DNA from: Deltaproteobacteria bacterium
Lineage (GTDB): Bacteria > Desulfobacterota > RBG-13-43-22
NCBI GenBank assembly: GCA_016219225.1
Contig: JACRBX010000262.1
Span: forward strand, 1 to 27,976
Direction: 5' to 3'
Length of the DNA: 27,976 nucleotides
In this document: positions 85 through 18,978 of the stretch, one piece after another
Layout: each line of letters begins with the position of its first letter
Position numbering within the stretch: position 1 is the first letter of the stretch
The notes under the pieces: generated by a model
The model's database searches: none
Told to the model about the DNA's origin: nothing
What the model saw: only the letters and a program-made list of their open reading frames with translations
Translations under genes and position numbers: made by a program

Positions 85-2070
85 CTATTGAACAGATTTC
101 TGAATAATATCATTAAATTTCGGCATATTCAGAGGCATGGTTGGGTCCATGGTCCTCTCTTTGATTGCCAGCGCCCTGCGAAAGAGAGTCTCTGCACCGT
201 CGTAATCCCCTTTGGATTGAAGGAGTACGGCCAGGTTGTTCAGGCTTTGGGCTGTAGCGGGGTGATCGGGACCGGATTGTTGCTCGTTCATTGCCAATAA
301 AAACCTGACAAATGGAATGGCCTCGTTATATCGCGCTCTGGCATGAAGACAACCATAGAGCCCTACCAAAAGTTTGCTATTAAGCCGTTCATTGGGGCGC
401 ATATTCTGATGTGACCAAAGAGCCTCAGCATGGGGGAATAGAACCTCCCATGCAGGCCAGTTCTCAAATTCAAAAGCCGGATAGGGGGCGAACGTTGTCA
501 GAAGGGCGGTCGATTTATCGATCACTTCATCCTTGATGGAAGACGTAATCTGGTGCCGCTCCACTGCCTGCACCAGGCCGTGGACGGAGAATCCTTCAAG
601 GGCTTCTGGCCTTATCATGGAGTAGCGGATCAGGGCCTCCTTCCATTCACGGAGTTCAATTTCATCCGGCTCAGGAATATTATCATCGCCAGAGAGACGG
701 GCCTGTTCAGCCACGATGGATGCGCCATGGAGAACCATAGCAAAGGGAATGGGCGTAGGTGCCATAAATGAGGTGAGCCTGAGTATGGCCCGGGATCCTG
801 GAGGGAGTTGGTCAATGGTTGTGCGCCAGGTATTAAAGACGGCGTCAGGATACTCCGTTGCACCTTTGGTGCCCTTGGCAAGCAGTCTTCGTTCATTTTC
901 GGCCTTCTCATAAAGGGTTAAATATTTTCTATATCCGAACCCCTGACCCTGCCCTTTGTTCTGAATCTCTATATAGGCTGCGGCCTGCTCAAGGGCGAGG
1001 GGCAGATATCCGAGTTTGCCTGCCAGCTCATCACAGGCCGTCTTATCGTCCCCGGTCAGGTTCTCCCATTCGAGATGGGCCCGTTTGAGCAGCAACTCCC
1101 GCGCCGGTTCCTTATCGAGGACCCAGACCGGGGTCTGTTCAATGCCGGTCTCCCAGTCCGTGAAGCGGGAAGTGATGATAGTATGACAGTTGCCTGTTTT
1201 GGGAAGCCAGGAAAGGATTGTATTTTCATCAACCGCATCGTCAAAGATGACCAGCCGGAGGGGTGCGTCGAGGCGCTTAAGCTCTCTCAGTACTGAAGCG
1301 GCCTTCTCATCCTCCTTCAATCCTTCGCCGGTCCTTTCCGGGAACAGGAGTGGGTAGAGACCTGCCATCTCCGTGACCACGCCGGCCTTACAGCTTATCC
1401 AGAACATCTGGCGGTAACAGCGCCAGAATTTTTCTGCATACTCCCGGGCTAAGGTAGTCTTGCCAACCCCGCCCAGCGCGGTAACGGCCTGGATATGTCC
1501 CTGGGTCAGAGTGGTGGTGGGATTGGTAAAAAGCCTTTCATGTATCTCATCCATCAGGGCCTCACGACCCACAAAGTTCGGGTTATGGGAAAAGCGGAGG
1601 TGGGCTACCCTCTGCTCTTTCACCTCAGGGAGTGGGGCAGCAAGTAGTTTCCGCAGGGCCTCAAAGAGTACTGGCCATCGGTCTGAGGTGTCTTTTCCGG
1701 TTAGATCAATGACATCCCCTTGAAACCTAAGGAGAGGAGGAGTAAAGACCTCCTCAAGGGTACCCTCGAATACCAATGGGATGATCGCTTCGGCGCCATA
1801 GGTCTCGTACTTCGTCCATTCCTTCGTTTTCCAGCGCGGGGTGAGAACGGGAATAACGATCCGGCTGTTCTCACAACCAGCCTCGATCTCCCGATGCCAG
1901 TCGCAGCCGGGATCCAGGCGCTTCTTATCGAACCAAATCCTGGGATTTTTGGGGTCATCGCCGTTGAAACCGGCGGCGACAAGGCGGTCGTAGAGTTGTT
2001 GCGCCATGGATAGATCGTTAGAGGAGTAACTAATAAAAATGTCGTAGGTTTGATTAGCTTGATCAGACAT
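85..2070 (-). CDS. TIR-NB-ARC (STAND NTPase)-TPR protein, NLR-like
   Basis: 661-aa ORF. The N-terminus has a TIR-type strand (YDIFISYSSND) and a candidate catalytic Glu in TKEW. NB-ARC motifs: P-loop GGVGKTTLA, Walker B LVIFDDA, TSR and LPLAL (GLPL-like). The C-terminus has only ~2-3 TPR_12-like repeats (GPDHPATAQSLNNLAVLLQSKGDYDGAETLFRRALAI). Confidence 0.85.
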   Translation of the reverse strand: MSDQANQTYDIFISYSSNDLSMAQQLYDRLVAAGFNGDDPKNPRIWFDKKRLDPGCDWHREIEAGCENSRIVIPVLTPRWKTKEWTKYETYGAEAIIPLVFEGTLEEVFTPPLLRFQGDVIDLTGKDTSDRWPVLFEALRKLLAAPLPEVKEQRVAHLRFSHNPNFVGREALMDEIHERLFTNPTTTLTQGHIQAVTALGGVGKTTLAREYAEKFWRCYRQMFWISCKAGVVTEMAGLYPLLFPERTGEGLKEDEKAASVLRELKRLDAPLRLVIFDDAVDENTILSWLPKTGNCHTIITSRFTDWETGIEQTPVWVLDKEPARELLLKRAHLEWENLTGDDKTACDELAGKLGYLPLALEQAAAYIEIQNKGQGQGFGYRKYLTLYEKAENERRLLAKGTKGATEYPDAVFNTWRTTIDQLPPGSRAILRLTSFMAPTPIPFAMVLHGASIVAEQARLSGDDNIPEPDEIELREWKEALIRYSMIRPEALEGFSVHGLVQAVERHQITSSIKDEVIDKSTALLTTFAPYPAFEFENWPAWEVLFPHAEALWSHQNMRPNERLNSKLLVGLYGCLHARARYNEAIPFVRFLLAMNEQQSGPDHPATAQSLNNLAVLLQSKGDYDGAETLFRRALAIKERTMDPTMPLNMPKFNDIIQKSVQ

Positions 2071-2162
2071 AAGGCTGAATCCTTTGAGTTGCGGTCCCAG
2101 TAGTGGTTCCTTCGTTACTCATGGTGTACTCCTTCGTGGGTGTCGCGTTATCTTCGAATAGG

Positions 2163-2984
2163 TTATTCCATGTCTCTCAGCAAATCACCCAGCACCATGA
2201 TCGGCTTCCAGTAGATGCCCCGCTTGAATTTTTCAACATCCATCTGAAGCCCGATGGTGTTCTGCATTATTTTGAGTTTGCTGTCGATACTACAAACGGG
2301 GCGCCATGAGCAACGGCAACCCTCGTGCAGGCCATTGGTAAAAACCGCCGGCTCAATGGTCTCCCACTCCTCGGCGGTGCGGACCAGGCTGAGGTGTTTT
2401 AGGCAGGGCCTGCACAGTCGGTCGTCGACGGGTCCGGTCATCAGAAAGAGTCCCCCATCGGCCGAGAAATCCACATCTTTAGTCTGGCGACTCTCTTTGC
2501 CGTTCACGTCCATCCGCCCGTGCCAGTACCAGGGCTTTCTTAGATCCGTCTCGGGCTTGGCCGCCACCCCGAGCCACCAAGCGGCTCGCTCCAGGTCCTT
2601 GGGAACCCCCTGGCCCTTTTCATACATCCGTCCGAGGCACTCCTGGGCCGCCCTGTGTCCCCCCGTGGAAGCCAGGGAGAATCGCTTGAAGGCCTTCGCG
2701 TAGTTTTTGGACACACCTTCTCCCTTCAAGTACATGAGGCCCAGCCGGTAATCGGCAGTACGGCAGATACTATTGGCAGCCAGGCGTCGATACCACCTGG
2801 CCGCCTCGGCGAAATTCTGGGTTACTCCCTCGCCCTTCCTATACATCTCCCCCAGGGTGAACTGAGCCCAGGCGTCACCCTGTTTGGCCTGCCGCCGGAG
2901 GCTTTTCAAGTCACTCTTGGTTCGATTCAAGGTACCGGCTCCAGCGTCACGAATCTCATCATCGGGAACATTCCTGCCAGTCAA
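2163..2984 (-). CDS. Sel1-like repeat (SLR) protein with a C-terminal MuF/SPP1-gp7-like Cys/His module
   Basis: There are at least three Sel1 repeats (AQFTLGEMYRKGEGVTQNFAEAARWY; LGLMYLKGEGVSKNYAKAFKRF; LGRMYEKGQGVPKDLERAAWW). The C-terminal DDRLCRPCLKHL...LHEGCRCSWRPV resembles the D-x-R-V-R-P-x-H ... N-C-R-C signature of Phage_Mu_F (PF04233). The only in-frame start is TTG at 2984, since the first ATG lies inside a repeat, so the start is uncertain. Confidence 0.7.
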   Translation of the reverse strand: MTGRNVPDDEIRDAGAGTLNRTKSDLKSLRRQAKQGDAWAQFTLGEMYRKGEGVTQNFAEAARWYRRLAANSICRTADYRLGLMYLKGEGVSKNYAKAFKRFSLASTGGHRAAQECLGRMYEKGQGVPKDLERAAWWLGVAAKPETDLRKPWYWHGRMDVNGKESRQTKDVDFSADGGLFLMTGPVDDRLCRPCLKHLSLVRTAEEWETIEPAVFTNGLHEGCRCSWRPVCSIDSKLKIMQNTIGLQMDVEKFKRGIYWKPIMVLGDLLRDME

Positions 2985-3093: not shown

Positions 3094-3141
3094 AAAACAA
3101 AAAGAGCTCGTTCCATTTGCCTGCCTCTCACAGGCAAATGG
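3094..3141 (-). terminator. Terminator-like stem-loop downstream of the RyR operon
   Basis: On the minus strand: CCATTTGCCTG-tgagagg-CAGGCAAATGG, an 11-bp perfect stem at 3113-3141. It is followed after 9 nt by CTCTTTTTGTTTT. The spacer before the U-tract is non-canonical. Confidence 0.4.
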
Positions 3142-3256
3142 AAAATCTCTAACTTAGCGTACTCGGCGTCTCGAACGAGTCCTGTTTTTATTAAGACGAG
3201 TGGGCGGTGAAATTGTTTTTTATAGTGCAACCTATTTTATGTTCTCGGTAGTAATT

Positions 3257-3544
3257 CTATACCTTCTCTATCCCATACCCCAATCCCACTATCACCTTCA
3301 ATGTCTCCATGGCCGTCATCCGGTCGTATTCTTTCTCCGACTCGAGCAGGTCAGCGTAGGGGATAAGGTCCGGGTGTTTCTTGGTTTTATCGTCTCTCTC
3401 CGGCCCCCAGGTCCAGCCTTCACTCATCCGCTGTTTTGACCAGATCTCATGAGTATTCTCGGCCAGGTGTTCCGTCAGTTCCACGAGGTCGTTGGTAAGG
3501 GTGACTTTTGATGTGTCAATGGGTTTCGGTGTGTATGCATTCAT
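3257..3544 (-). CDS. Stand-alone RyR-domain protein
   Basis: LAENTHEIWSKQRMSEGWTWGPERDDKTKKHPDLIPYADLLESEKEYDRMTAMETLKVIVGLGY matches the RyR repeat signature (PF02026). The ORF opens at TTG 3595. I prefer ATG 3544 because AAGAGGA lies just upstream. Confidence 0.8.
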   Translation of the reverse strand: MNAYTPKPIDTSKVTLTNDLVELTEHLAENTHEIWSKQRMSEGWTWGPERDDKTKKHPDLIPYADLLESEKEYDRMTAMETLKVIVGLGYGIEKV

Positions 3545-3575
3545 AAGTCCTCTTTTCTCTGTCCACCCGTATTCT

Positions 3576-6203
3576 TCACTTCTCGATAAAGACAATCTTC
3601 ATTCCCGCCTCACGGGCGAAATCAGGATAATGCCGGATCGTGTCACGGTCCTTGCCCTTATCTTTATCGCTTAATTTCGAGAACGGGATCAAACAGTCAT
3701 GTTGCTTCTTCTCGTCATCTCGCTTAGGATTGTAGCACCACCCCTTTTCAAGATGCCAGATCATCCAACCCTCATGCTCAGCTTCCGCCAGGGCCAAGAG
3801 ATAGTATTCCAAATGCTGTTTCACCTTATCTTCTTCTGCAGCGCTTGCCGTCCCTTCAACGAGGGTCAGCCCGATAAGGGCCAGCAAATTCAACATCCGT
3901 TTAGCTGCGGCGCGGTTGGATTCCTGAAAGAAGGGAGATAAATTTCCAAAATCCTTGTCGGTTTCAGGTTTCGACCATCCTTCCTTTTTCCCTAAGGCCC
4001 GGAAGGTTTCGCTTATGGCTGGGGCAATTTGTTTGATCTGCTCCATGGTCAAACGTGCTTCAGGGGAAAATATTTTGGGAGCATTAGAGCAAAGGAAAAT
4101 AAACTCTTCCGCATTCGTGTGCATCTCCAATTGGTTTAAGGGCATTAGCAGGGATCGGTGCAGCGTCCCTGGCCGAGCAGCAGCAAAGGGCTGGAGGGCT
4201 TTACCTAGGGATCGGGATCCGTGCATATACTCTTTCACGTGGAGCAAAGCATGGGCTAATCCCTCGTCAATCTCAAGCTTGTCGTCCTTTCCACATTTAA
4301 GCTCGGAGCGGCCCATGAGAGCACGCCGGATAGGGAAGAAGGTATCTGTCGGATCGGTGATAAAGTCATGTCCTCCAACCTTTTCAATCTGCTCCTCCAC
4401 ACTGCTGCCGGGCTTAAGATGAATTTTACGTTGATTTGGCCCAATAACGTCTAAGTAGGCATCAATCCGACTCTTGAAATCAGACCCCTTGGCAAGACGA
4501 AAATCATTATACGCCTGAACATCCACACCACTTATCTTTGATGGATCAGGCGGCCCGAAGGTTTCGAAGGTCCAGCTTGTCCCTCCGGCAAAGACAAAAA
4601 TACATTTCCCCAGGGTATGGGTGAGTTGACCTTCCTGGAATTTACCATCCTGCATGGGGGCAAGAAGATACTGGAGCCATCTGAATTTTTGGGAATCAAA
4701 CTCATCGAAAAAGGCAACCGGCAGTTGCCCCTGCAGGACTCGGTCACGGATCTGGTGAAAGGCGCCAATGAGATCGTCAGGAGAATTAAACTGAGAAAGG
4801 TTAAATTCCAACCAACCGTCTAAGGTTACCGTGCTGGCAGCGATTTCTTTCACAGCAAAAGATTTACCGGCGCCAGGAGGACCGAATACCCCGATAGAGA
4901 GGGGCTTCTTTCCTGATTCCTTTTTGTCTTCGTATCGTCGAATTACTTCTAATAGAGAGCGATAGGCTTCCATCTCTGTCCGGTCGGCTGTAAAAAGCTT
5001 GCCAATGCTGAGATGCGGCAGGCTTTCCAAAGCAATAGGACCGCGCAGAAGAACAAGCCGGGCCAGATCGAATACCGGCTTGAGCTGTGATTGACGGAGA
5101 ATACTCCAGGTCGAATCCGCCGGAGGGGATGAAGAATACACTGCCCTGGAATACAGGGTTCCAGGATGTTTTATTACTCCTGCCAGCCTCTTTGACGGGA
5201 ACCCCTGGGGTTCCTCTCCGGCAGGGCCATGCCCTTTTTCTCTGAGGTCTCTCATGGCGGCCAGCCCGCCCTCAAGGGCAGAGGCTATGTCAGGGATTTC
5301 AAGATTATCGGATAGCCGCCATGCCACGGCCGCTGCAAGACAGGAGAGAAACCCGAATCCTTTCCCCTCGGTCTTATATGAATGCTCCCCTTCGATACTG
5401 CCGGCGTTATGGATCAAATGGATGTAGGCTTTGGACAGTTCGGTTCCATCAGTAAGATCGATCCAGAGAGCGCCCTCCGATTCGAAGGTGATAATGAGAT
5501 GTCTGCATTTCACGAGATTGGGCAGAACACCCTCAGGTCTCAGTTCACGAAGTACCCCTTCAATGGTTTCTTCCCACGACAAACCAGCATGGAGTCTGGC
5601 CGGTGACTTACGCAATTCATGGGCGGACATGATCACGATCAGTTTGTTACGGTGGTTTATGGTGAGGTGGTCCCAGAGCTCTTCAACCCCCACCGGCGAT
5701 GTTGTCTTCAGGACTATCCACCGGGCTGTGGTAAGCCTCTCCTTCTGCCAGTTTTCTGGGCAATCCCTGAAACCCATCCCTCCTTCGGAGATGACCATGA
5801 TCTCGGGGCTTTCCGGTAGATCCGCCGCAATAGGCCATTGAACGCAACTTTTCTCTCCGTCATTAAAACCGAAGCCCATGGCCTCGCTGACCCGCCAGAA
5901 CTGGCGATCAGGAGAAATACCTTTTGGAAAAGGACGCCAGTACGCGTAGGCATGTTCGGCATTATTAAGGCCGAATGCCGCATCATTAGGCATGGCATCC
6001 TGAACAGTAAGACGGGAGGTCCACCCTTGCTTGTTCCCCTGAAGCAGCTCCTTCAGTATGCCTTGAACCAGGGCAGCTCCACCTATTTCCGGTTTTACCT
6101 TTACCCCGACCCTGGGCCTTTGTGCATAATGAAAACGTCGTCCTTCATAGACATGCTGGTCAATGATGAAATCACCTGTTACGAGAATGGCGTTGGCAGT
6201 CAT
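3576..6203 (-). CDS. PfkB/ribokinase-like domain - AAA+ ATPase - 2x RyR domain fusion protein
   Basis: The N-terminal ~400 aa align by eye to HldE/RfaE-type PfkB kinases (ILVTGDFIIDQHVY, EIGGAALV, IMVISEGGMG, HLIITFESEGALWID). The GAGD anion-hole motif is replaced by GKGF. The AAA module has Walker A GPPGAGKS and Walker B VAFFDEFD. The C-terminal RyR repeat is EHEGWMIWHLEKGWCYNPKRDDEKKQHDCLIPFSKLSDKDKGKDRDT, preceded by a weaker RyR-like repeat. The ORF extends to ATG 6335 (919 aa), but ATG 6203 has AAGGAG plus a 6-nt spacer and starts exactly at the PfkB first strand. Confidence 0.8.
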   Translation of the reverse strand: MTANAILVTGDFIIDQHVYEGRRFHYAQRPRVGVKVKPEIGGAALVQGILKELLQGNKQGWTSRLTVQDAMPNDAAFGLNNAEHAYAYWRPFPKGISPDRQFWRVSEAMGFGFNDGEKSCVQWPIAADLPESPEIMVISEGGMGFRDCPENWQKERLTTARWIVLKTTSPVGVEELWDHLTINHRNKLIVIMSAHELRKSPARLHAGLSWEETIEGVLRELRPEGVLPNLVKCRHLIITFESEGALWIDLTDGTELSKAYIHLIHNAGSIEGEHSYKTEGKGFGFLSCLAAAVAWRLSDNLEIPDIASALEGGLAAMRDLREKGHGPAGEEPQGFPSKRLAGVIKHPGTLYSRAVYSSSPPADSTWSILRQSQLKPVFDLARLVLLRGPIALESLPHLSIGKLFTADRTEMEAYRSLLEVIRRYEDKKESGKKPLSIGVFGPPGAGKSFAVKEIAASTVTLDGWLEFNLSQFNSPDDLIGAFHQIRDRVLQGQLPVAFFDEFDSQKFRWLQYLLAPMQDGKFQEGQLTHTLGKCIFVFAGGTSWTFETFGPPDPSKISGVDVQAYNDFRLAKGSDFKSRIDAYLDVIGPNQRKIHLKPGSSVEEQIEKVGGHDFITDPTDTFFPIRRALMGRSELKCGKDDKLEIDEGLAHALLHVKEYMHGSRSLGKALQPFAAARPGTLHRSLLMPLNQLEMHTNAEEFIFLCSNAPKIFSPEARLTMEQIKQIAPAISETFRALGKKEGWSKPETDKDFGNLSPFFQESNRAAAKRMLNLLALIGLTLVEGTASAAEEDKVKQHLEYYLLALAEAEHEGWMIWHLEKGWCYNPKRDDEKKQHDCLIPFSKLSDKDKGKDRDTIRHYPDFAREAGMKIVFIEK

Positions 6204-6327
6204 GACGATCTCCTTTGATTGGAAATGATATTCGGTTTCTTTATGATGGAAAAGATCACCGATTGGTGGGGCATCAGAGAGGGCTTCTCCATTTTTATTA
6301 TTTGGGTATGTGTGTAATGAACGTTGG

Positions 6328-9300
6328 TCATTCATCCTCCAGGGGCGGCGGCTGTGCCTTGCGCCATTCTAAGAACTGGTCCAGGGAAATGCGGGTCGCT
6401 CCATAATAAAGTTTCAGGAAACAGACCTGTCCGTTGGCTTGAGTGAGAACAAGGGTGCCATCGGATCTGAGGAGACGCGCTGTGCCGTCAGAATCGGCAT
6501 GCCAACGGGCACAGAGGACGATCTTTTGCCCCTTTACTGGAAGATTGACTTCTCCATAACGGCGTTCTGCTCTGGCAAATATGTCGGAGTAATAAAGGTC
6601 TCTTCCAAGATAAAGAGGTATTGATTCGGGATATCGAATGCAGAATTCAATGAAGTTCAATACTTCAATACAAGCTCCGGTTTTACTATCCCAGATGCGC
6701 AGGATATGATCCCAAGCCCACGAGAGTATCCGCCCGTCGTTGAGCTGAAGGGCGCCATTGGTCCAGTTTGTATGCCCCTCAAGTACGACGAGGGGGCGTC
6801 CGTCTGTATCCCAGAGGCGCAGGGTACGATCATCAGACCACGAGAGTATCCGCTCGTCGTTGAGCTGAAGAGCGCCATTGACCCAGTTTGTATGCCCCTC
6901 AAGTACAGCGAGGGGGCGTCCGTCAGTATCCCAGAGGCGCAGGGTATGATCACCAGACCAGGAGAGTATCCGCCCGTCGGTGAGTTGCAGGACGCCCTTG
7001 ACCCAGTCTGTATGCCCCTCAAGTACGGCCAGGGGGCGTCCGTCAGTATCCCAGAGACGCAGGGTATGACCATCAGACCAGGAGAGCATCCGTCCGTCGG
7101 TGAGCTGAAGAGCGCCACGGACCTGGTACGTATGCCCCTCAAGTACGGCGAGGGGGCGTCCGTCTGTATCCCAGAGGCGCAGGGTATGACCATCAGACCA
7201 GGAGAGCATCCGTCCGTCGGTGAGCTGAAGAGCGCCACGGACCTGGTACGTATGCCCCTCAAGTACGGCGAGGGGGCGTCCGTCAGTATCCCAGAGGCGC
7301 AGGGTCCTATCACCCGACCACGAGAGTATCCGCCCGTCGGGGAGCTGAAGGGCACCTTTGACCTCGAATGTATGGCCCTCAAGGACAGAGAGGCAAGGGC
7401 TGACGTCTGCTTCTTCCACTCTTTGCATTCGCCGCAACCACACCCAATCAACCTTGCCCGCGTGGAGATATTGCTCCGCCGCAATCGTTATCGGGCTGTT
7501 ATCGGCATGTTCAATGGCCAGTTGCAGCAGAATCTTGTGACCTGGCCATTCGTCGTTTCCACGGCGGAGGATGTGAATTTTCTCCCGGAAGGAGGTCGAC
7601 CAAAACTCAAGCCGTTTCGCTATCTCCGCTGGGGCTCGCCTCTCCAGCGTCCCGTAGTCGTAGGAAATCGAATCAAACAAGCCTAGTTCGCATTTCCGCA
7701 TCAGCCACGGGAAGTCGGTCACCAGTTCACCGGCTTCCATCCAGTCACCCGCGTCGGCTTGATGGCCGACAAGCTGCTGAAAGAAGTAGCCGTCATCCGG
7801 GCCTGAAGGCCAACTATCTGGGCATTTTCCGCGATAGGCATCGAGCAAGGTCCGGTGCAGGGCCTTTGGCTCGCCAGCCAAACGGGTGGCGAAGTCATAC
7901 ACGAGGTCGTGCAGGCGGAAGCGGCGTTCAATGGCTTCCCCCGGCTGGGCGGCCTTCTGGTCGAGCTGGATGAGGGAGCGCTCGGACAGGCTGATGAGCA
8001 GTTTGCTGCAGTTGCGATCGCTTAACGGCCCGGTGTGCTCCCACAGTACATGGACAGCAGCTTCCGGCACTGTCCGGCCCGTCGCGAAGACGGCGAGTTC
8101 GGCGAAGCGCGGTTTCTCCACGTCCTTCAGCGCATCGTAACTGGCCTTCATCGCGTTCCAGATGGTACGATGCTGTTCGTTGGTCTCCTCGCGGTTCTCC
8201 GGCCACTCCAGATCCGCTTCGCGCAGGGCTGCGACGATGTCCTGCCAGGAATGCCCTGCTTTTGCCATGCCGCCGCACAGCGCCACGGCCAACGGCAGGC
8301 ATCCGCACTCCCTGACCACTTCCTGCGCCTCGCGTGGAAGGGCGGCACGTTCCATGTCCACTGCGCCGGCGAGCAGTTGCAGCGCCTCCGGCTCGGTGAA
8401 GAGCGACACCGGCACGCACTCGCCGCCCATGGTGCTCAGGATGCCAATATCGCGCGTAGTGACCAGCGCCCGGCAGCGCGGGCCCAGTACATCGAAGGCT
8501 TTGGCATCCGAAGCATGCCAGACGTCATCAAGGACAAGCAGTACGGCCTTCTGAAGGAGCAGTTGTCGGAGGACACCCTGTCCTTGGACTTCGGTTTGAA
8601 ATGGCTCCTGACTGCCGAGGTGTCGGGCCACGTCGCGCAGGAGGCTAACGCGATCAGGTGGCTGGCCGACGGCGACCCAGATGATGCCGTCGGGGTAGGA
8701 GTGGCGCACCTCGGGGTCGCGTGCGAGTGCCGCGGCCAGCACGGACTTCCCGATGCCCCCCATGCCCTGCATGCCGACGCGCGCGGCGGCGCCGCTGATG
8801 ACGACGGGCTTCTGAAGGTCCACGAGCAGAGCGTCCTTGACGCGGCGAAGAAGATCGGGCCGGCCGAGAAAATTCGGCGGCAGGTTCGGCACACCGTAGA
8901 GCGCCCCCAAAGGCGGGGCGTCGAGGCGAAGATTCGCGATGAGCTTGGCGAGTTGGACCGGATACTGGGCATCGTCACGGAAATCGTCGCAGTGAAGCAA
9001 TCCCAGTTCGCCGGGAATGTCCTGGTAGTCGCCCCGTAGGAGGATGGGGATGACGGGCTTGTCGAGTTCGAGCCCCCAACGCCATTCCTGACGGACATAA
9101 TCGGAATGCGCCGCCTTCGGACCGACCACCAGCACTATCCTGTCCCGCGCGCGGATAGCGTCAGCGATCTCCTGGTGGAAGGTGAGTTGCCGAGACGGCA
9201 ATGAGACGCGGTCGAACCAGACATCAAAGCCAGCGGCGGTGAGATCGGTATGAAGCCGCACGACGAAGGATTTGGCGGGATTATACGGCTCGCCGTCATC

Positions 9301-9333
9301 GCCTCGGGCGTATGACAGGAATACCTTGGTCAT
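6328..9333 (-). CDS. TIR-NB-ARC (STAND NTPase)-WD40 protein, NLR-like
   Basis: 1001-aa ORF with AAGGAG 9 nt upstream of ATG 9333. The TIR starts at KVFLSYARGDD, with a candidate catalytic Glu in YVRQEW. Canonical NB-ARC motifs are present: GMGGIGKS, LLVLDDVW, ALVTTRD and GCLPLAV. Six 40-aa WD40 units (LEGHTxxVxGALQLxDGRxLSWSxxxTLRLWDTDGRPLAV) are followed by a degenerate blade. Confidence 0.92.
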   Translation of the reverse strand: MTKVFLSYARGDDGEPYNPAKSFVVRLHTDLTAAGFDVWFDRVSLPSRQLTFHQEIADAIRARDRIVLVVGPKAAHSDYVRQEWRWGLELDKPVIPILLRGDYQDIPGELGLLHCDDFRDDAQYPVQLAKLIANLRLDAPPLGALYGVPNLPPNFLGRPDLLRRVKDALLVDLQKPVVISGAAARVGMQGMGGIGKSVLAAALARDPEVRHSYPDGIIWVAVGQPPDRVSLLRDVARHLGSQEPFQTEVQGQGVLRQLLLQKAVLLVLDDVWHASDAKAFDVLGPRCRALVTTRDIGILSTMGGECVPVSLFTEPEALQLLAGAVDMERAALPREAQEVVRECGCLPLAVALCGGMAKAGHSWQDIVAALREADLEWPENREETNEQHRTIWNAMKASYDALKDVEKPRFAELAVFATGRTVPEAAVHVLWEHTGPLSDRNCSKLLISLSERSLIQLDQKAAQPGEAIERRFRLHDLVYDFATRLAGEPKALHRTLLDAYRGKCPDSWPSGPDDGYFFQQLVGHQADAGDWMEAGELVTDFPWLMRKCELGLFDSISYDYGTLERRAPAEIAKRLEFWSTSFREKIHILRRGNDEWPGHKILLQLAIEHADNSPITIAAEQYLHAGKVDWVWLRRMQRVEEADVSPCLSVLEGHTFEVKGALQLPDGRILSWSGDRTLRLWDTDGRPLAVLEGHTYQVRGALQLTDGRMLSWSDGHTLRLWDTDGRPLAVLEGHTYQVRGALQLTDGRMLSWSDGHTLRLWDTDGRPLAVLEGHTDWVKGVLQLTDGRILSWSGDHTLRLWDTDGRPLAVLEGHTNWVNGALQLNDERILSWSDDRTLRLWDTDGRPLVVLEGHTNWTNGALQLNDGRILSWAWDHILRIWDSKTGACIEVLNFIEFCIRYPESIPLYLGRDLYYSDIFARAERRYGEVNLPVKGQKIVLCARWHADSDGTARLLRSDGTLVLTQANGQVCFLKLYYGATRISLDQFLEWRKAQPPPLEDE
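6667..7386. repeat. Intragenic tandem repeat, 6 x 120 nt (WD40 blades)
   Basis: The period is exactly 120 nt. Units 7027-7146 and 7147-7266 differ at 3 of 120 nt, all synonymous, because the encoded blades are identical. Confidence 0.95.
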
Positions 9334-9582: not shown

Positions 9583-9638
9583 TTGAAAGACTATAACATG
9601 GAGGGAAACGGAGTCAAGAAGAATAATAGAGCGGAAGG
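9583..9638 (+). repeat. Dispersed repeat, copy C
   Basis: An ungapped hand alignment to 11734-11789 gives 43/56 identities (core GTCAAGrAGAAwAATAGAGyGrAAGG). Confidence 0.6.
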
Positions 9639-9651
9639 CCGGGAGGGTTTG

Positions 9652-10167
9652 CTAAATCCGATCCAGGATAACCGAGTCTATCTCTATCCCGTTGCCATCC
9701 CCACCGGTCACCGAAATGGTTATTTTATGGTCTCCTGGCTGCAGGGTTACGGGACCCAAGTCGGGGCTTTCGGCGAAATTGTTCCATCCCAAACCAAAAT
9801 CACCGGTATCTTCTGAAGTGAATTGTCCAACTGAGCTGCCATCCAATTGTATGGAAACCACTTCCGTTGGGCCGTTATTGTCATTGCTATACCGGACCCT
9901 TAGCCTGTAATTGGTATTGGTACCGGGACAAAGGGGGAAGGTGATGATCCGGGTCTCATTGGCGTGGAGCCAGACCGTGGCCTGTCCACCGGCATTGGAC
10001 CGGGACATCACCTGACCGGCGCCGGAACCGTTTTCAGCCTGGAGCACGATTTGGGTGGCGGCTGCAAGGCAACTTCCCCCTCCGCTGCCGCGGTTACCGC
10101 CTCCGCCTCCACACCCGGCATGACTGAGTAGAATGATTAGAGCTACATAAAGCCTTGATTTGTTCAT
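9652..10167 (-). CDS. Lipoprotein with a carbohydrate-binding-module-like beta-sandwich domain
   Basis: An internal ATG at 10167 opens a signal peptide with a lipobox (MNKSRLYVALIILLSHAGC) and a Gly-rich linker. The body (QAENGSG..., YRLRVRYSNDNNGPTEV, GWNNF, IEIDSVIL) resembles CBM6/35-like or galactose-binding-like domains. No clear SD is present. The long ORF continues upstream in frame to 10329. Confidence 0.55.
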   Translation of the reverse strand: MNKSRLYVALIILLSHAGCGGGGGNRGSGGGSCLAAATQIVLQAENGSGAGQVMSRSNAGGQATVWLHANETRIITFPLCPGTNTNYRLRVRYSNDNNGPTEVVSIQLDGSSVGQFTSEDTGDFGLGWNNFAESPDLGPVTLQPGDHKITISVTGGDGNGIEIDSVILDRI

Positions 10168-10185
10168 CACCGGCCCGGGTTGAAG

Positions 10186-10326
10186 CGATCGGTCCAATAC
10201 TGATCTTCGAACCGCCCGATCCAATTCATCGAGAAATTGCTTACCAAGACCATCAACCTGTTCATTGTACCAGACGACAGCGTCATCGAGTTCCTGCTGG
10301 GCCAACGTGAGAAAGCGTATTTTCAT
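10186..10326 (-). pseudogene. ParE/RelE-family toxin, N-terminal ~47 codons only (truncated)
   Basis: MKIRFLTLAQQELDDAVVWYNEQVDGLGKQFLDELDRAVRR is a typical ParE-type N-terminus. Its ATG overlaps the antitoxin stop (TGATG at 10324-10328). The similarity ends after ~45 aa, where the frame runs into the lipoprotein signal peptide. Confidence 0.6.
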
Positions 10327-10544
10327 CAACGGCGATACTTTTCTATAACATCCTTATATGATACTGACGGAATATGGCCTAATTTGTAAGCATCCCAACG
10401 TTTGCGCGCCTCCTCCGCCCAAATCCGATCCAACTCCGGGTCCGGTTTATCAAGATCGGTAAGGATTGCATCCACCAATCGCAGTTTTTCAACGTCCGAT
10501 AAAGAATTTATTTCCTCGGAAAGCCTTTCTGCTGTGGTTGTCAT
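10326..10544 (-). CDS. Putative addiction-module antitoxin component (TIGR02574-like)
   Basis: LSDVEKLRLVDAILTDLDKPDPELDRIWAEEARKRWDAYKLG matches the 'putative addiction module component' family that pairs with ParE/RelE toxins. GGAGG lies 7 nt upstream of ATG 10544. Confidence 0.7.
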   Translation of the reverse strand: MTTTAERLSEEINSLSDVEKLRLVDAILTDLDKPDPELDRIWAEEARKRWDAYKLGHIPSVSYKDVIEKYRR

Positions 10545-10840
10545 GATAACACCTCCGTTATTAAAACTATGCAATGCTTCGATTTTGGTTTTTTTATGAA
10601 TTTATCAATCATAACACTTCGTTCCCAAGACAGCAATCGATTGCGCTCCAGGCAAAAACGGCCCGCTTGAGACTATCGACCAGGCGCACGACATCATCTG
10701 TGCCACCGGCTTTCTACCAGTCATAAAATTTTTTGGGGGTCATGTTGAATTCCTGATTATGTTTTCTTCGCGCCGAAACAACCTACTCACTCGGAGCGCG
10801 CCGTTTGCGCGATCGGATGCAGCCGATGATTAGCTGCTTT

Positions 10841-11363: not shown

Positions 11364-11684
11364 TCACTGGGGACCGTCAGCCGCAGGTTGGCTGCTATCC
11401 GGGTGCAGGCGAACGTCCGGCGTTTCAACATTCCCTTCTAATTTCCCTGTTGCCATAAAATAAAGCGACTCAGGTGCAATATCAAAACCACAATCCCAGG
11501 CAAGAGTAGGCCAGGAGTCAAGGTAAAAACGTGAGAACACTACGGGATCGCGTAAGGGTGAGGCAATTGCATATTTGTACACAATATCTCGAAGATCAAC
11601 TTCTCCTGTTTCCCCGGTGTTAAATTTTAGCTCAATCCGATAGTCATTGATATACCGTGCTTCTAATACAGAAATACATTCCAT
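11364..11684 (-). CDS. DUF2442 domain protein
   Basis: The layout (IELKFNTGETGEVDL ... WPTLAWDCGFDIAPESLY) is characteristic of DUF2442. GAGAGGA lies 6 nt upstream of the ATG. Confidence 0.65.
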   Translation of the reverse strand: MECISVLEARYINDYRIELKFNTGETGEVDLRDIVYKYAIASPLRDPVVFSRFYLDSWPTLAWDCGFDIAPESLYFMATGKLEGNVETPDVRLHPDSSQPAADGPQ

Positions 11685-11733
11685 ATTATTTCCTCTCTTA
11701 TGGAACGGGGCCGGAATTGGGACAGTCGTCCAG

Positions 11734-11908
11734 TTCGAAAAAGTATAGCATAGGGCAAAACGGGGTCAAGGAGAAAAATAGAGTGAAAGGGGGAATCATG
11801 GGGTCGCATCTTTCATATTGACTTTTGTCAGTCATCACGGCCCAGACGACAAGCCCCGACTACACCAGATCCTTGAGAAAAAGATGGGCCGAACAGAGGC
11901 GTATCCCT
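11734..11908 (+). repeat. Dispersed repeat, copy A (longest)
   Basis: The left part matches copy C. Segments 11765-11790 and 11853-11908 match copy B at 22/26 and ~85% identity, with ~60 nt of extra sequence between them. Confidence 0.6.
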
Positions 11909-12000
11909 TCCTTGGTGGTCAGGTCAACATCCGGATCAAGGGTCACCTTTAAACGGCTATGCTAAACGCTGGCAGATCGAAATCAATATCCATGAAAACG

Positions 12001-12222
12001 TTAAGCGGCAAATTTAATAATTTCCAGTTCCGCAGCGTAATCGGCTTTCTCAAGAATTTGATCCACTCGTTCCATAATATTATCTTCTAATAGATATTCA
12101 TTACAATTTTTACATTGGAGTACCGGCAATTCTTTTAAAATAATGATGGTCTCCTGGTCCACCTTAAAAGGCAAGGTGGTAATAATAGGCTCCATTTCAG
12201 ATCCACAAACATGGCATTTCAT
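12001..12222 (-). CDS. YgiT-type (MqsA-like) zinc-finger protein, putative antitoxin
   Basis: MKCHVCGSEM...LQCKNCNEYLL is the CxxC...CxxC YgiT-type finger (TIGR03831-like). It overlaps the DUF4258 gene by 4 nt (ATGA). Confidence 0.75.
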   Translation of the reverse strand: MKCHVCGSEMEPIITTLPFKVDQETIIILKELPVLQCKNCNEYLLEDNIMERVDQILEKADYAAELEIIKFAA

Positions 12223-12563
12223 TTTGACGGTCTCCTTGTTTTAAAATCTTCATTCCATTCTTGGGAATCTGGCTGATAGGCGGTAATAACCCGAATGTTA
12301 TTTCCAGGCATATCTATAGCAAACTGGACATGAAAAATATTGCCCTTATTCCAAGAATAAACCAGGTAACTGGGAAAATATTTGTCATCTGGATATTCTT
12401 CGATGATTTCGAACTGTGAAACGGAATCCAATATTTCGTTTCGGTTAATAAATCTTTCTTTTAATCTCATAGTTACATGATAAGTCCAGAAAATTTTTCT
12501 CTCCTTTATGCAACGCTGAATATAGCTTAAAGGATCAATAGGAATTCGATGCCTATCGTTCAT
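12219..12563 (-). CDS. DUF4258 domain protein, putative toxin
   Basis: WTYHVTMRLKERFINRNEIL ... NNIRVITAYQP is the DUF4258 signature. I take ATG 12563 as the start, although the ORF opens at TTG 12578. Confidence 0.75.
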   Translation of the reverse strand: MNDRHRIPIDPLSYIQRCIKERKIFWTYHVTMRLKERFINRNEILDSVSQFEIIEEYPDDKYFPSYLVYSWNKGNIFHVQFAIDMPGNNIRVITAYQPDSQEWNEDFKTRRPSK

Positions 12564-12883
12564 AAAGATTCCCGTCAAATCTGAATTGACAACTTTTTAA
12601 GGAGTAAAAAAGTATAATAAATTAACATTTTTAAGTTTACAAGACAATGTTTTTCAAGATCCGGGTTAATTTTCTCTTATTAACGGTCTCATTGTAATAG
12701 CGACTTGGTGGAGGCTGTATTGGGCCAGGCAAAGATACCAAATTTAATATGGGGATGGAAAGGAGTCTGAACTGGGATAGATTTGAGAAGGTCTTTTCCG
12801 GGGGGGAAATTTTTTCGTCAAAAATGATAGCGGGGGTAAGGAGAGGCCCTCTTAATTTACATAGCTCGGGAGGCTTTTCAACC

Positions 12884-12934
12884 TTTACACTGGAATTTTT
12901 TTATGCTATATTAGTTACTAAAGTTTAGTAACTA
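12884..12934 (+). promoter_or_regulatory. Sigma70-type promoter plus a 23-bp perfect palindromic operator
   Basis: The promoter is TTTACA (12884-12889), a 17-nt spacer and TATATT (12907-12912). The palindrome TAGTTACTAAA-G-TTTAGTAACTA (12912-12934) starts at the last base of the -10 element and ends 23 nt before ATG 12958. Confidence 0.6.
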
Positions 12935-12957
12935 TAAAGGTGATAGGGAGCCGTGAG

Positions 12958-14082
12958 ATGCAAAATCCATTCTATTTCAGAGTGTTACCATTGACAGCGC
13001 CCTTCTGTGATAGAGAGAAAGAACTGGACCAGTTGGTGGCCCATGCTCAGAACAGGGCCAACGTCGTTTTTTTCTCTCCGAGAAGATATGGGAAGACATC
13101 CCTCGTCCAAAGGGTACAGGAAAGATTGAAGAGAAAGGGACTCGCGACGGTCTATATCGATTTGTTCGGCATCGATTCGCAGGAAGACCTGGCTGCCAGA
13201 ATGGCCTCCCGGCTCTATTCCTATTGTCATGAAAACGAAGGCCTCTTTAAAAAGGCGATGAAATTTTTATCCTCCTGGAGGCCGGTAATCAGACCTGATC
13301 CGGAGTATGGCGTTTCCCTGACCGTGGAGCGATCCGTCGGGCGGAAGGGGGCCGATCTCCTCAACAGTACCCTCGATGGCTTTGGTAAGTTCATCCAAGA
13401 AGAAAAGAAGGGTGTTCATATTGTCTTCGATGAATTTCAAGAGATCTCGGAGTTACGTGAGTCCCTCCAAATAGAAGGAATGCTGAGGGCGCACATCCAG
13501 ACTCACAGCCGTGCCTCTTACTTCTTCGTGGGGAGTAGGCGGCGCGTTCTAACTGATATCTTCAACATTCGAAAGAGGCCTTTCTATCGCAGTTCTATAA
13601 ACTTTCCGTTAGGTCCTTTACCCTTTGAAGAAGGAGTCCGTTTCGTAGTTGAACAGTTCAAAAGGGGAGGAAAATCATGCCCGGAGGAGATCGGAAAGAA
13701 AATCCTTGAAAAAACGGGTGGCTATCCCTATTACGTCCAGAGAGTGCCTTATTCGATCTTTGAGGTCAGCGGTAAAAAGGTGACTGAGGAGGACTATATT
13801 AAGGGGTTCCAGAAAACCGTTGAAGAAGAGGGCATCGTATATGAAGCGATAGTTCAAGCCCTTTCACTTCAACAGATAAAACTCCTTTCCGCGTTTGCTC
13901 TGGAGCCGACTGAAAAGCCTTACTCTGTCGATTACATGGGCAGGCATGGCCTCGGCTCTGTCGGCGGCGTCCAGGGAGCACTTAAGAGATTGTTGGAACT
14001 GGACTATATCGAAAAGAAGGCTCCCCTCTTCGTGATCGTCGATCCCCTCTTCGGGATCTGGCTCAGACGCCTTAAGGAATGA
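12958..14082 (+). CDS. AAA+ ATP-binding protein, archaeal-ATPase family (PF01637-like)
   Basis: Walker A FFSPRRYGKTSL and Walker B HIVFDEFQEI follow the PF01637 pattern. GGGAG lies 7 nt upstream of ATG 12958. The ORF opens at GTG 12940. Confidence 0.8.
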   Translation: MQNPFYFRVLPLTAPFCDREKELDQLVAHAQNRANVVFFSPRRYGKTSLVQRVQERLKRKGLATVYIDLFGIDSQEDLAARMASRLYSYCHENEGLFKKAMKFLSSWRPVIRPDPEYGVSLTVERSVGRKGADLLNSTLDGFGKFIQEEKKGVHIVFDEFQEISELRESLQIEGMLRAHIQTHSRASYFFVGSRRRVLTDIFNIRKRPFYRSSINFPLGPLPFEEGVRFVVEQFKRGGKSCPEEIGKKILEKTGGYPYYVQRVPYSIFEVSGKKVTEEDYIKGFQKTVEEEGIVYEAIVQALSLQQIKLLSAFALEPTEKPYSVDYMGRHGLGSVGGVQGALKRLLELDYIEKKAPLFVIVDPLFGIWLRRLKE

Positions 14083-18797: not shown

Positions 18798-18971
18798 TTA
18801 ATACGAAAATAGCTCAAAGCCGAAAGCTCAAAGCAAACCAAAAACAATTAAATCGACGCATGACGAAGCATGAAAAAGGATTCAAGGGGTCCAGGGGCCA
18901 AGGGTCCAAGTGAAAGGCGTGGAATTTAAAACCTTGAACCCTGGAATCCTTGAACCCTATTTTAGTACTAA
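18798..18971. repeat. Composite intergenic element: inverted terminal 15-nt boxes enclosing heptamer arrays
   Basis: TTAATACGAAAATAG (18798-18812) and CTATTTTAGTACTAA (18957-18971) are 13/15 complementary. Inside are GCTCAAA GCCGAAA GCTCAAA GCAAACC (18812-18839), a second array at 18878-18910 and its inverted partner at 18932-18958, about 80% complementary. Confidence 0.7.
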
Positions 18972-18978
18972 GGAGATT

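Follow-up and report, generated by a model that had tools for sequence, protein, structure and literature searches.

Three closely packed genes on the minus strand of contig JACRBX010000262.1 (assembly GCA_016219225.1), from a metagenome-assembled genome (MAG) of a member of the Deltaproteobacteria, were analyzed as a candidate defence module. The whole stretch of 27,976 nucleotides (nt) is referred to as the window, and all its features are numbered by position in this stretch (Table 1). Gene 1 encodes a TIR-NB-ARC-WD40 protein of the STAND class, gene 2 a protein in which a ribokinase-like domain and an AAA+ ATPase are followed by a RyR domain (PF02026), and gene 3 a single RyR domain. On the evidence of conserved gene linkage, partner fusions and retained ligand residues, we lean, by a modest degree, towards reading the trio as a Thoeris-like TIR nucleotide-signalling defence module, in which the RyR domains would be the signal receptors, gene 2 the effector and gene 3 a regulator.

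A first-pass annotation made from the letters of the window had described three same-strand genes in tight succession, and verification of the open reading frames (ORFs) and their junctions bore this out, with gaps of 124 nt between genes 1 and 2 and of 31 nt between genes 2 and 3. Gene 1 ends with TGA at 6330-6328 and gene 2 with a stop codon at 3578-3576. A 919-codon form of gene 2, beginning at ATG 6335, does overlap gene 1 by 8 nt as annotated; it has no ribosome-binding site and is supported by no homologue. The start preferred in the annotation, ATG 6203, is preceded by AAGGAG 7 nt upstream and is the one at which all homologues and the NCBI annotation (875 amino acids, aa) begin. Likewise, a TTG-extended form of gene 3 (from 3595) overlaps gene 2 by the 20 nt given in the annotation, and the true start is ATG 3544, with an AGAGGA site, 31 nt past the gene 2 stop, yielding a protein of 95 aa with orthologues of 94-99 aa. 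The strong stem-loop noted after the third gene was recovered at ~3143-3111 (-26.1 kcal/mol, z = -5.1, with 0 of 200 shuffled sequences folding as well) and is followed, after five bases, by the T-tract CUUUUUGUUUU. A consensus scan of the minus strand for terminator-like patterns inside the trio found one, weak and within the gene 2 coding region, and the count was not above that in shuffled sequences. The number of promoter-like sites in the region was not above shuffles either; besides the candidate upstream of gene 1, a weak site lies inside the 124-nt spacer. G+C content is 60% in gene 1 (about 70% at third codon positions, GC3, and 68-74% in the TIR and NB-ARC parts), 51% in gene 2 (GC3 53%) and 50% on average over the window, and this jump suggests that the STAND gene was acquired or swapped separately from genes 2 and 3.

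Table 1. The three-gene unit, its domains and flanking signals, with positions in the window
Feature	Position	Strand	Basis and remarks
Gene 1, TIR-NB-ARC-APAF1_C-WD40 STAND protein, 1001 aa; proposed infection sensor and signal synthase	6328..9333	-	Pfam
TIR domain of gene 1 (TIR_2, aa 4-131)	8941..9324	-	Pfam, E 3e-18; catalytic Glu E83 in SDYVRQEW
NB-ARC domain (STAND NTPase) of gene 1 (aa 185-400)	8134..8781	-	Pfam, E 4e-35
WD40 array of gene 1, presumed ligand recognition	6687..7383	-	Pfam; DNA repeats, 5.8 copies of a 120-nt unit, 88% matching
Spacer between genes 1 and 2, 124 nt	6204..6327	-	No terminator-like structure; holds AAGGAG for ATG 6203
Gene 2, 875 aa: ribokinase-like domain, AAA+ ATPase, helical region, C-terminal RyR domain; proposed signal-gated effector	3576..6203	-	Pfam, alignment, AlphaFold2, Foldseek
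Predicted ribokinase/PfkB-like fold of gene 2 (aa 1 to ~400)	5004..6203	-	AlphaFold2 model and Foldseek against PDB; VTGD..D..GG kept; no sequence match
AAA+ module of gene 2 (aa ~430-640)	4284..4916	-	Walker A GPPGAGKS, Walker B FFDEFD, LLAPMQDG; weak Pfam AAA, bpMoxR, AAA_5
Tentative degenerate first RyR-like repeat of gene 2 (aa ~720-785)	3849..4046	-	Family consensus IAPAIHETYRxLGxxxGW ... SNRAAA
RyR domain of gene 2 (PF02026, R12-type, aa 790-871)	3591..3836	-	Pfam, alignments; HEGW, KQHDC, GKDR
Gene 3, single-repeat RyR protein, 95 aa; proposed free signal binder or glycosidase	3257..3544	-	Pfam RyR, 2e-35
Intrinsic-terminator-like hairpin with 14-bp stem and T-tract; end of the three-gene unit	3094..3143	-	Folding, sequence reading
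Candidate promoter-like site upstream of gene 1, TTGACT-16 nt-TATAGT with TG	9590..9617	-	10 of 12 positions match
Adjacent, probably separate unit: Sel1-repeat gene (2984..2163) and TIR-NB-ARC-TPR gene (2070..85)	85..2984	-	Immediately after the terminator of the trio

The TIR, NB-ARC and WD40 domains assigned to gene 1 in the annotation are all matched in Pfam, which places an APAF1_C domain at aa 490-621 and the WD40 repeats at aa ~650 to ~900. The column of the catalytic glutamate is kept in all 58 aligned TIR domains that adjoin gene-2 homologues, including E83 of gene 1. Two of the WD40 repeats are identical at the protein level, and the array looks like a case of concerted evolution or rapid diversification of sensor repeats.

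For gene 2, a family alignment of 27 homologues was built (45% mean column identity), in which the Walker A and Walker B motifs are essentially invariant and LLAPMQDG is conserved. The AAA+ and RyR domains of the annotation were both recovered with Pfam, the former weakly (483-549 in the numbering of the 919-aa form) and the latter with an E-value of 1e-12 (48.5 bits against a cut-off of 27.4). Its label 'PfkB-like' stood at the level of fold and failed at the level of sequence. An AlphaFold2 model computed from the alignment reached a pLDDT of 84.3 and a pTM of 0.85, and a Foldseek search of the PDB with this model returned HldA, ribokinase, pseudouridine kinase and Pfk-2 (E 4e-8 to 1e-6, probability 1.00, target TM 0.5-0.58); moreover, the N-terminal VTGD..D...GG resembles PfkB substrate-binding motifs. 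In sequence searches, neither PF00294 nor any other Pfam family matched the N-terminal ~400 aa, the family profile found no PfkB protein among PDB sequences, and hhalign against E. coli RbsK gave a probability of 0.3%, aligning only the N-terminal GD..D..GG stretch. By eye, the family consensus has no conserved acidic residue at the place where the GAGD of the C-terminal DTxGAGD motif would be expected. The domain is referred to here as ribokinase-like by its predicted fold. A profile of the small RyR proteins gave a weak second match immediately before the canonical repeat in 18 of the 27 family members (the window protein not among them), and the AlphaFold2 model shows a mirrored helix-helix-strand pattern at this place; tentatively, gene 2 may carry a degenerate and a canonical RyR repeat in tandem, like animal Repeat12, with only the second pocket keeping all ligand residues.

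At E <= 1e-30, the gene 2 family comprises 1731 clusters (50% identity) in a representative library of 1.84 billion proteins, where its members are named just 'RyR domain-containing' or 'AAA family ATPase'. A search of 2.9 million viral contigs (IMG/VR) yielded a single weak partial match; the family is cellular rather than viral, and on its near absence from IMG/VR a phage origin or an anti-defence role for gene 2 was rejected. A MoxR-vWA-beta-propeller ternary system was likewise rejected: bpMoxR scores 20.8 bits in gene 2 against a cut-off of 27, and no vWA domain was reported among the window proteins, ten individually scanned locus proteins and the 25 commonest families of the neighbour sets.

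The identity of gene 3 as a RyR protein, as proposed in the annotation, is clear from its Pfam match (121 bits against a cut-off of 27.4), and the protein also matches the first Repeat12 repeat (residues 860-948) of animal RyR2 with a per-domain E-value of 1e-18. The statements of the annotation that PF02026 domains have no assigned function, and that the connection between cyclic ADP-ribose (cADPR) and ryanodine receptors is a mere analogy, are outdated, as ligand and function have been shown for phage proteins (PMC13232231; 10.64898/2026.06.04.730250) and phage RyR domains bind 2'cADPR, 3'cADPR and cADPR. Phage RyR domains either cleave or bind the TIR-made 2'cADPR and 3'cADPR: RyDEP (DyoEdafos gp78) has the catalytic dyad H75/D117 and the ligand contacts W78 and H100, its post-reaction structure contains linear ADP-ribose (ADPR), and further phage RyR proteins are nanomolar sponges of these Thoeris signals, the sponge-type proteins having these residues but no catalytic activity (PMC13232231). 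'RyR Tad' (Pectobacterium phage CB1 gp68) binds 3'cADPR, 2'cADPR and cADPR via the equivalent His/Trp/His/Lys-Asp (10.64898/2026.06.04.730250, June 2026). These two preprints were all that was found in the literature on bacterial RyR-domain systems, and both treat viral proteins only, with no host RyR proteins in TIR operons (PMC13232231; 10.64898/2026.06.04.730250).

Ligand residues were compared in an alignment of gene 3, the RyR domain of gene 2, other RyR domains, DyoEdafos gp78 and the CB4 homologue of gp68. The positions of RyDEP H75 and W78 are invariant and those of H100 and D117 nearly so, and genes 2 and 3 have all four residues. Among the 27 homologues of gene 2, H810, W813 and D852 are invariant, and H835 and K851 occur in at least 90%. 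Overall, gene 3 is ~30% identical to RyDEP, versus 53-69% to its own orthologues. In the genome of Mycobacterium phage DyoEdafos (49183-50613), gp78 lies between the genes for a ribose-phosphate pyrophosphokinase and a nicotinamide phosphoribosyltransferase, as in PMC13232231, and this pairing of RyDEP with a neighbouring ribose-phosphorylating enzyme echoes the RyR and ribokinase-like fusion of gene 2.

Genomic neighbourhoods were surveyed for gene 2 with one genome per species; at least 337 species have a relative, 80 loci were kept, and counts are given over 81 loci of distinct species. These loci span Desulfobacterota, Planctomycetota, Verrucomicrobiota, Acidobacteriota, Chloroflexota, Actinomycetota, Bacteroidota, Bacillota, Alphaproteobacteria and one archaeal MAG. 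ORFs were called in all loci and the neighbours clustered; since the greedy choice of ORFs makes some of them start too early and may fuse neighbouring genes, such cases were not taken as evidence. One of them may be a 1494-codon ORF (L047:9995-14479) in which the N-terminal and AAA+ core of gene 2 is joined to a complete Peptidase_M1 aminopeptidase, either a true fusion or an artefact of assembly or ORF calling, and which was set aside. TIR domains were counted with an iterated profile; the iterated RyR profile grew in every round, so that RyR counts were taken from single-round matches and Pfam.

Three groups of neighbours recur. STAND/TIR proteins occur in 43 loci, and the N-termini of 63 such proteins match TIR_2 (33), DUF4062 (15) or nSTAND1/NACHT/AAA_16 (10-21) in Pfam. 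An N-terminal SLOG-like family, with the motifs GHR...AEGADR...WDGxxxxGxGGT, is present in 27 loci by clustering and 31 by profile search, either alone (~193 aa) or fused to a four-transmembrane region that is a sub-threshold SLATT domain (SLATT_1 E 1e-8, 35 bits against a cut-off of 41). RyR- or TrkA_N-containing proteins make up the third group (21 loci). Of the 81 loci, 35 have a TIR ORF no more than 5 kb from the gene-2 homologue and 18 have one no more than 500 nt from it, in 16 of these cases on the same strand; 48 loci have a gene of either kind, TIR or SLOG, inside the 5-kb limit. The density of TIR genes is 17.3 per 100 kb in the first kb beside gene 2 versus 1.1-3.6 at 4-10 kb, and that of SLOG genes 15.2 versus 0-2.2 at 2-10 kb. 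The linkage of genes 2 and 3 to a TIR-STAND gene, which the annotation had made a condition of its proposal, is therefore upheld as a distance-dependent, mostly same-strand association that holds across many phyla and includes fusions, but not as one to TIR-NB-ARC-WD40 proteins specifically: what is conserved is a TIR-domain partner whose architecture varies between loci (TIR alone, TIR-STAND-WD40, TIR-STAND-TPR and others). Often a SLOG-SLATT membrane protein joins as a fourth member, which this window does not have. The SLOG-like protein is also the commonest immediate downstream neighbour of gene-2 homologues (L172:4505-6514, L075:12640-14292, L061:12608-13189 and about 25 other loci).

The association is tightest among close relatives. 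A TIR gene is close by in all nine informative relatives with at least 58% identity to gene 2, and L001, L004, L084, L088, L169, L170, L171 and L172 have TIR genes on the same strand; a further locus, L086, ends 232 nt upstream of gene 2 and is uninformative. At 76% identity (L084), gene 2 is preceded by ThsB_TIR, a 96-aa RyR gene and TIR_2 and NPHP3/TPR fragments broken by an insertion sequence (IS) element, and followed by TIR fragments. In L169 (72%), the end of a SLATT gene is followed by gene 2, a TIR gene (352 aa) and a RyR gene, and in L170 (65%) a SLOG fragment by a RyR gene and a TIR-NB-ARC-TPR gene directly upstream of gene 2. At 61%, L171 has a TIR gene (227 aa) upstream, and L004 the series RyR (96 aa), 1445-aa STAND, gene 2, TIR (357 aa) and a TIR-NACHT-RyR protein. 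At 60%, gene 2 is followed by TIR-NACHT-WD40 (L001) or has a 122-aa TIR ORF abutting its start (L088). The most distant of these, L172 (58%), encodes a TIR-NB-ARC-APAF1_C-WD40 protein with the architecture of gene 1, then SLOG-SLATT, TIR, gene 2 and DUF4062-NACHT. TIR content that is conserved while gene order is shuffled within a close clade is a classical signature of a functional system. The order found in the window is repeated at 35% identity (L031), with a protein ending in WD40 followed by gene 2 and a RyR gene, alongside a protein that combines TIR with a gene-2-type AAA+ module. The small RyR gene is optional, being present in five of nine close relatives and in few distant ones. In L084, IS elements (rve, Transposase_mut; 3840-5681 and 12648-13874) have disrupted the flanking TIR, STAND and TPR genes, and gene 2 and the small RyR gene are intact.

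A second, independent survey took gene 3 as its starting point. The small RyR proteins encoded next to gene-2 homologues are its orthologues, at the identities given above, except for the divergent copy of L004 (29%). A metagenome scan with an alignment of the small RyR proteins found at least 474 relatives, of which 80 loci were kept, many of them on contigs of just 1-5 kb. Within these 80 loci there are 25 with TIR, 15 with the gene-2 core, eight with SLATT and six with SLOG, and 40 with any of these. Gene 2 is followed by RyR, as in the window, in six metagenomic loci (L092, L115, L116, L135, L152, L153), and a RyR gene directly adjoins a TIR gene in L094, L095, L098, L103, L104, L130, L156, L158, L164 and L166.

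Several of the partners also occur as covalent fusions. One protein (P0126) contains the entire gene 2 architecture with a C-terminal TIR_2 domain, another (L031:4574-6097) joins TIR to a gene-2-type AAA+ module, and in the TIR_2-NACHT-winged-helix-turn-helix-RyR protein of L004 (13545-15986) the RyR domain occupies the sensor position of a TIR-STAND protein. In P0215, the ribokinase-like/AAA+ core of gene 2 (residues 1-787) is followed by NACHT and TPR, so that a protein-pattern sensor replaces RyR. As the N-terminal slot in the general STAND/NLR layout holds the effector, it is mainly the position of the core in P0215 that leads us to regard gene 2 as an effector whose sensor can be exchanged. 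In these neighbourhoods, RyR is also found as the C-terminal module on other domains with a plausible output role. RelA_SpoT (small alarmone synthetase-like) proteins with C-terminal RyR (L117:4117-6792, L015:1807-4359, L049:7649-10213) lie beside gene-2 or small RyR genes, those of L117 and L015 also having LSDAT/SLOG and that of L117 TPR. A K+ channel (Ion_trans_2)-RCK (TrkA_N)-RyR protein is found in L120:810-2633 and similarly in L053:8108-9916, L074:8540-10366, L038:52-1824 and L096:386-2266. The proteins of L117 and L015 place two nucleotide-sensor domains on one putative toxin, and the K+ channel genes adjoin small RyR, SLOG, TIR or gene-2 genes, which amounts to RyR-bearing ion channels in TIR-rich neighbourhoods.

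Comparison with named systems agreed with the claim of the annotation that none of them fits: genes 2 and 3 have no match in PADLOC-DB v2 or NCBIfam (June 2026). Gene 1 yields only weak TIR-level matches in PADLOC-DB v2, with no match to the TIR-NLR model at E <= 0.01, and reaches 25.7 bits for ThcB4 in NCBIfam against a cut-off of 220. Named Thoeris and SLATT systems were rejected for the related loci as well, where the partner TIR and SLOG-SLATT proteins stay under every cut-off. The December 2025 survey of Thoeris defined types V-XI and 29 putative types after removing Avs-type TIR proteins; its main text does not mention RyR, ATPase or kinase, and the accessible part of its supplementary text mentions neither RyR nor PF02026 (10.64898/2025.12.03.692087). 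The trio is outside every named Thoeris type. It resembles Thoeris (types I-XI) in that a TIR protein with catalytic glutamate is encoded beside a protein with a small-molecule-binding domain, that the SLOG and SLATT partners of types I, III and VII recur in gene 2 neighbourhoods, and that Thoeris-inhibiting phage RyR proteins bind Thoeris signals. It differs in that the receptor would be RyR rather than SLOG or Macro, that the effector would be an unnamed ribokinase-like/AAA+ protein, that the TIR domain sits on a STAND nucleoside triphosphatase (NTPase) with WD40 repeats, a class left out of the 2025 survey (10.64898/2025.12.03.692087), and that no Thoeris model of PADLOC v2 or NCBIfam reaches threshold for the trio.

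Gene 1 shares the tripartite build of Avs, bNACHT and TIR-NLR proteins (N-terminal TIR, STAND NTPase, C-terminal repeat sensor), but those act alone, whereas gene 1 is tightly followed by RyR partners that are conserved with TIR genes; as judged from genome comparison, these conserved same-strand partners argue against a stand-alone function. Gene 3 has the PF02026 single-repeat fold, the His/Trp/His/Asp residues and the small size of RyDEP and RyR Tad. Genes 2 and 3 are, by contrast, host-encoded in TIR operons, on a bacterial MAG contig with housekeeping genes, and their proposed role is that of receptor and regulator instead of immune evasion. The likeness to animal RyR Repeat12 consists in the match of gene 3 to RyR2, the possible tandem in gene 2 and the bacterial K+ channel-RCK-RyR fusions; there is no Ca2+ channel, the bacterial proteins being soluble ATPases or small proteins. 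In plants, a TIR-NLR makes ADPR-derived small molecules that are read by a separate receptor (summarised in 10.64898/2025.12.03.692087), and the trio would share this logic only: RyR stands in place of the EDS1 lipase-like heterodimer of the TNL-EDS1-helper-NLR pathway, and the output is unrelated. For the proposed role of gene 3, the ring nucleases of type III CRISPR systems (host Crn, viral AcrIII-1) offer an analogy, as small host messenger removers with viral evasion homologues, although fold and ligand are unrelated.

The proposal of the annotation that genes 2 and 3 form an effector or regulatory arm coupled to the TIR-NLR is supported by the conserved linkage, the partner fusions and the lack of a match to a named system, with the function itself being what we infer. 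In the mechanism that we favour, the WD40 array of gene 1 would recognise the invader and NB-ARC would oligomerise, rendering TIR active. TIR would then convert NAD+ to an ADPR-derived signal, most likely a cADPR isomer, which would bind the C-terminal RyR domain of gene 2 and switch on the AAA+ ATPase and the ribokinase-like module. The latter may provide the output, either by acting on a ribose-containing metabolite or by arresting the cell (abortive infection or growth arrest). Gene 3 might bind or hydrolyse the same signal, thereby setting the activation threshold or switching the system off, and would on the host side correspond to the RyR sponges and glycosidases of phages.

Several points weigh against this mechanism. 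TIR-STAND proteins are usually taken as self-contained, NAD+-depleting sensor-effectors. Since SLOG-SLATT, a classical killer effector, is present in many relatives, gene 2 could be an accessory or recovery factor, and since animal R12 also binds ATP and ADP, the ligand could be an ordinary adenine nucleotide. To judge from sequence, the ribokinase-like domain appears to lack a detectable PfkB catalytic signature, and co-transcription of the trio is likewise predicted from its layout. In view of the G+C jump, genes 1 and 2 may have come together here only recently. Among the gene-2 loci that are more distant, about half, including some with full 10-kb flanks, have no TIR or SLOG gene within 5 kb, so TIR is not an obligatory neighbour of gene 2 family-wide.

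In a rival reading that we regard as unlikely, though as the strongest competitor, genes 2 and 3 are an off-switch or recovery arm: like RyDEP, the RyR domains would break cADPR isomers down to ADPR by hydrolysis, the ribokinase-like/AAA+ part would process the ribose of this ADPR so that NAD+ can be recycled, or would return the TIR-STAND oligomer to its resting state, and the killing would fall to the TIR NADase itself or, in relatives, to SLOG-SLATT. The catalytic His and Asp of RyDEP are retained in both RyR domains, the neighbours of DyoEdafos RyDEP are a precedent for RyR paired with a ribose-phosphorylating fold (PMC13232231), SLOG-SLATT effectors are present in 28 of the 81 gene-2 loci and in the close relatives L169, L170 and L172, and small RyR genes also form apparent pairs with a TIR gene on contigs that show no further effector (e.g. 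L094, L103, L130). The conserved residues are, however, no proof of hydrolysis, as sponge-type phage RyR proteins keep them without catalysis (PMC13232231); the window has no SLATT effector, an ATPase of 875 aa is large for a housekeeping off-switch, P0215 has the core of gene 2 in the N-terminal effector slot of a NACHT-TPR protein, and the fusion of RyR to output-type domains (RelA_SpoT, K+ channel) argues for a sensor role. It is improbable, in our estimation, that the genes are independent, with gene 1 a stand-alone Avs/bNACHT-like NADase and genes 2 and 3 another defence or stress system that shares its islands. The first 14 kb of the window are indeed an island, with a second TIR-STAND gene, toxin-antitoxin genes and an ATPase_2 gene, and the different G+C contents of genes 1 and 2, the weak promoter-like site in their spacer and the absence of TIR within 5 kb from roughly half of the distant loci would all fit. 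Against it stand the sharp peak of TIR and SLOG density in the first kb beside gene 2, the same-strand position of 16 of the 18 closest TIR genes, the retention of TIR in every informative close relative despite shuffled order, the covalent fusions of TIR with gene 2 or its AAA+ module and of TIR-NACHT with RyR, and the fact that the RyR ligand is a TIR product (PMC13232231; 10.64898/2026.06.04.730250). We give equally little credence to the RyR domains sensing ordinary ATP, ADP or ADPR, or the collapse of NAD+ caused by TIR, with gene 2 as a second-line metabolic guard. The pocket of animal Repeat12 binds ATP, ADP and drugs (cited in 10.64898/2026.06.04.730250 and PMC13232231), linear ADPR is found in the post-reaction RyDEP structure (PMC13232231), and TIR-STANDs are generally regarded as NADases; yet the affinity of phage RyR proteins for cADPR isomers is nanomolar, RyR co-occurs with SLOG and LSDAT, known sensors of cADPR isomers or ADPR, and in a survey that covered TIR as the one NADase family, it is TIR genes to which gene 2 is linked.

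If the signalling module exists as proposed, TIR-based immune signalling would gain a new receptor domain (RyR/R12), for which such a role had been described only in phage counter-defence, as well as a new effector family that is large and unnamed (about 1700 clusters at 50% identity, from many bacterial phyla). A bacterial TIR-NLR would then act upstream of a separate signal receptor, as in plants, and the phage RyR sponges and glycosidases described in 2026 would have a host-side counterpart. A wider conjecture, which taken as a whole we hold to be doubtful, is that RyR (R12) is a native, widespread receptor class for TIR-made cADPR-type signals, gating ribokinase-like/AAA+ proteins, RelA/SpoT proteins, TIR-NACHT amplifiers and K+ channels, that the phage sponges and glycosidases were captured from host off-switches like gene 3, and that animal R12 descended from this immune receptor; it would give cADPR-RyR signalling an origin in bacterial immunity.

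Among the other genes of the variable island in which the trio lies (1-14 kb of the window) are a TIR-NB-ARC-TPR gene, the second TIR-STAND gene there, accompanied by a Sel1 gene, as well as two toxin-antitoxin-like pairs and an ATPase_2 gene. The TIR part of this second TIR-STAND gene matches the PADLOC candidate family PDC-S66. Upstream of the trio, at 9652-10574 (minus strand), a 225-aa ORF comes after an Unstab_antitox antitoxin gene (10574..10326). The first ~45 residues of this ORF are ParE/RelE-type toxin-like by eye, with no profile support, and the rest consists of a Gly-rich linker and a CBM6/Endotoxin_C-like domain; a truncated toxin may here have been joined to an unrelated gene. 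A DUF2442/DUF4258 toxin-antitoxin-like pair (11364-12578, minus strand) and an ATPase_2/AAA_16 gene with a weak match to PADLOC PDC-S01 (12940-14082, plus strand) fit a variable defence island. The remaining part of the window (14-28 kb) is largely housekeeping, with genes for GroEL, ALAD, a radical SAM enzyme, CRP and GGDEF, plus a dGTPase-type gene: its HD/HD_assoc protein (18910-20181, plus strand) gives a full-length PADLOC dGTPase match (E 1e-94) and could be a housekeeping or a defensive dGTP triphosphohydrolase.

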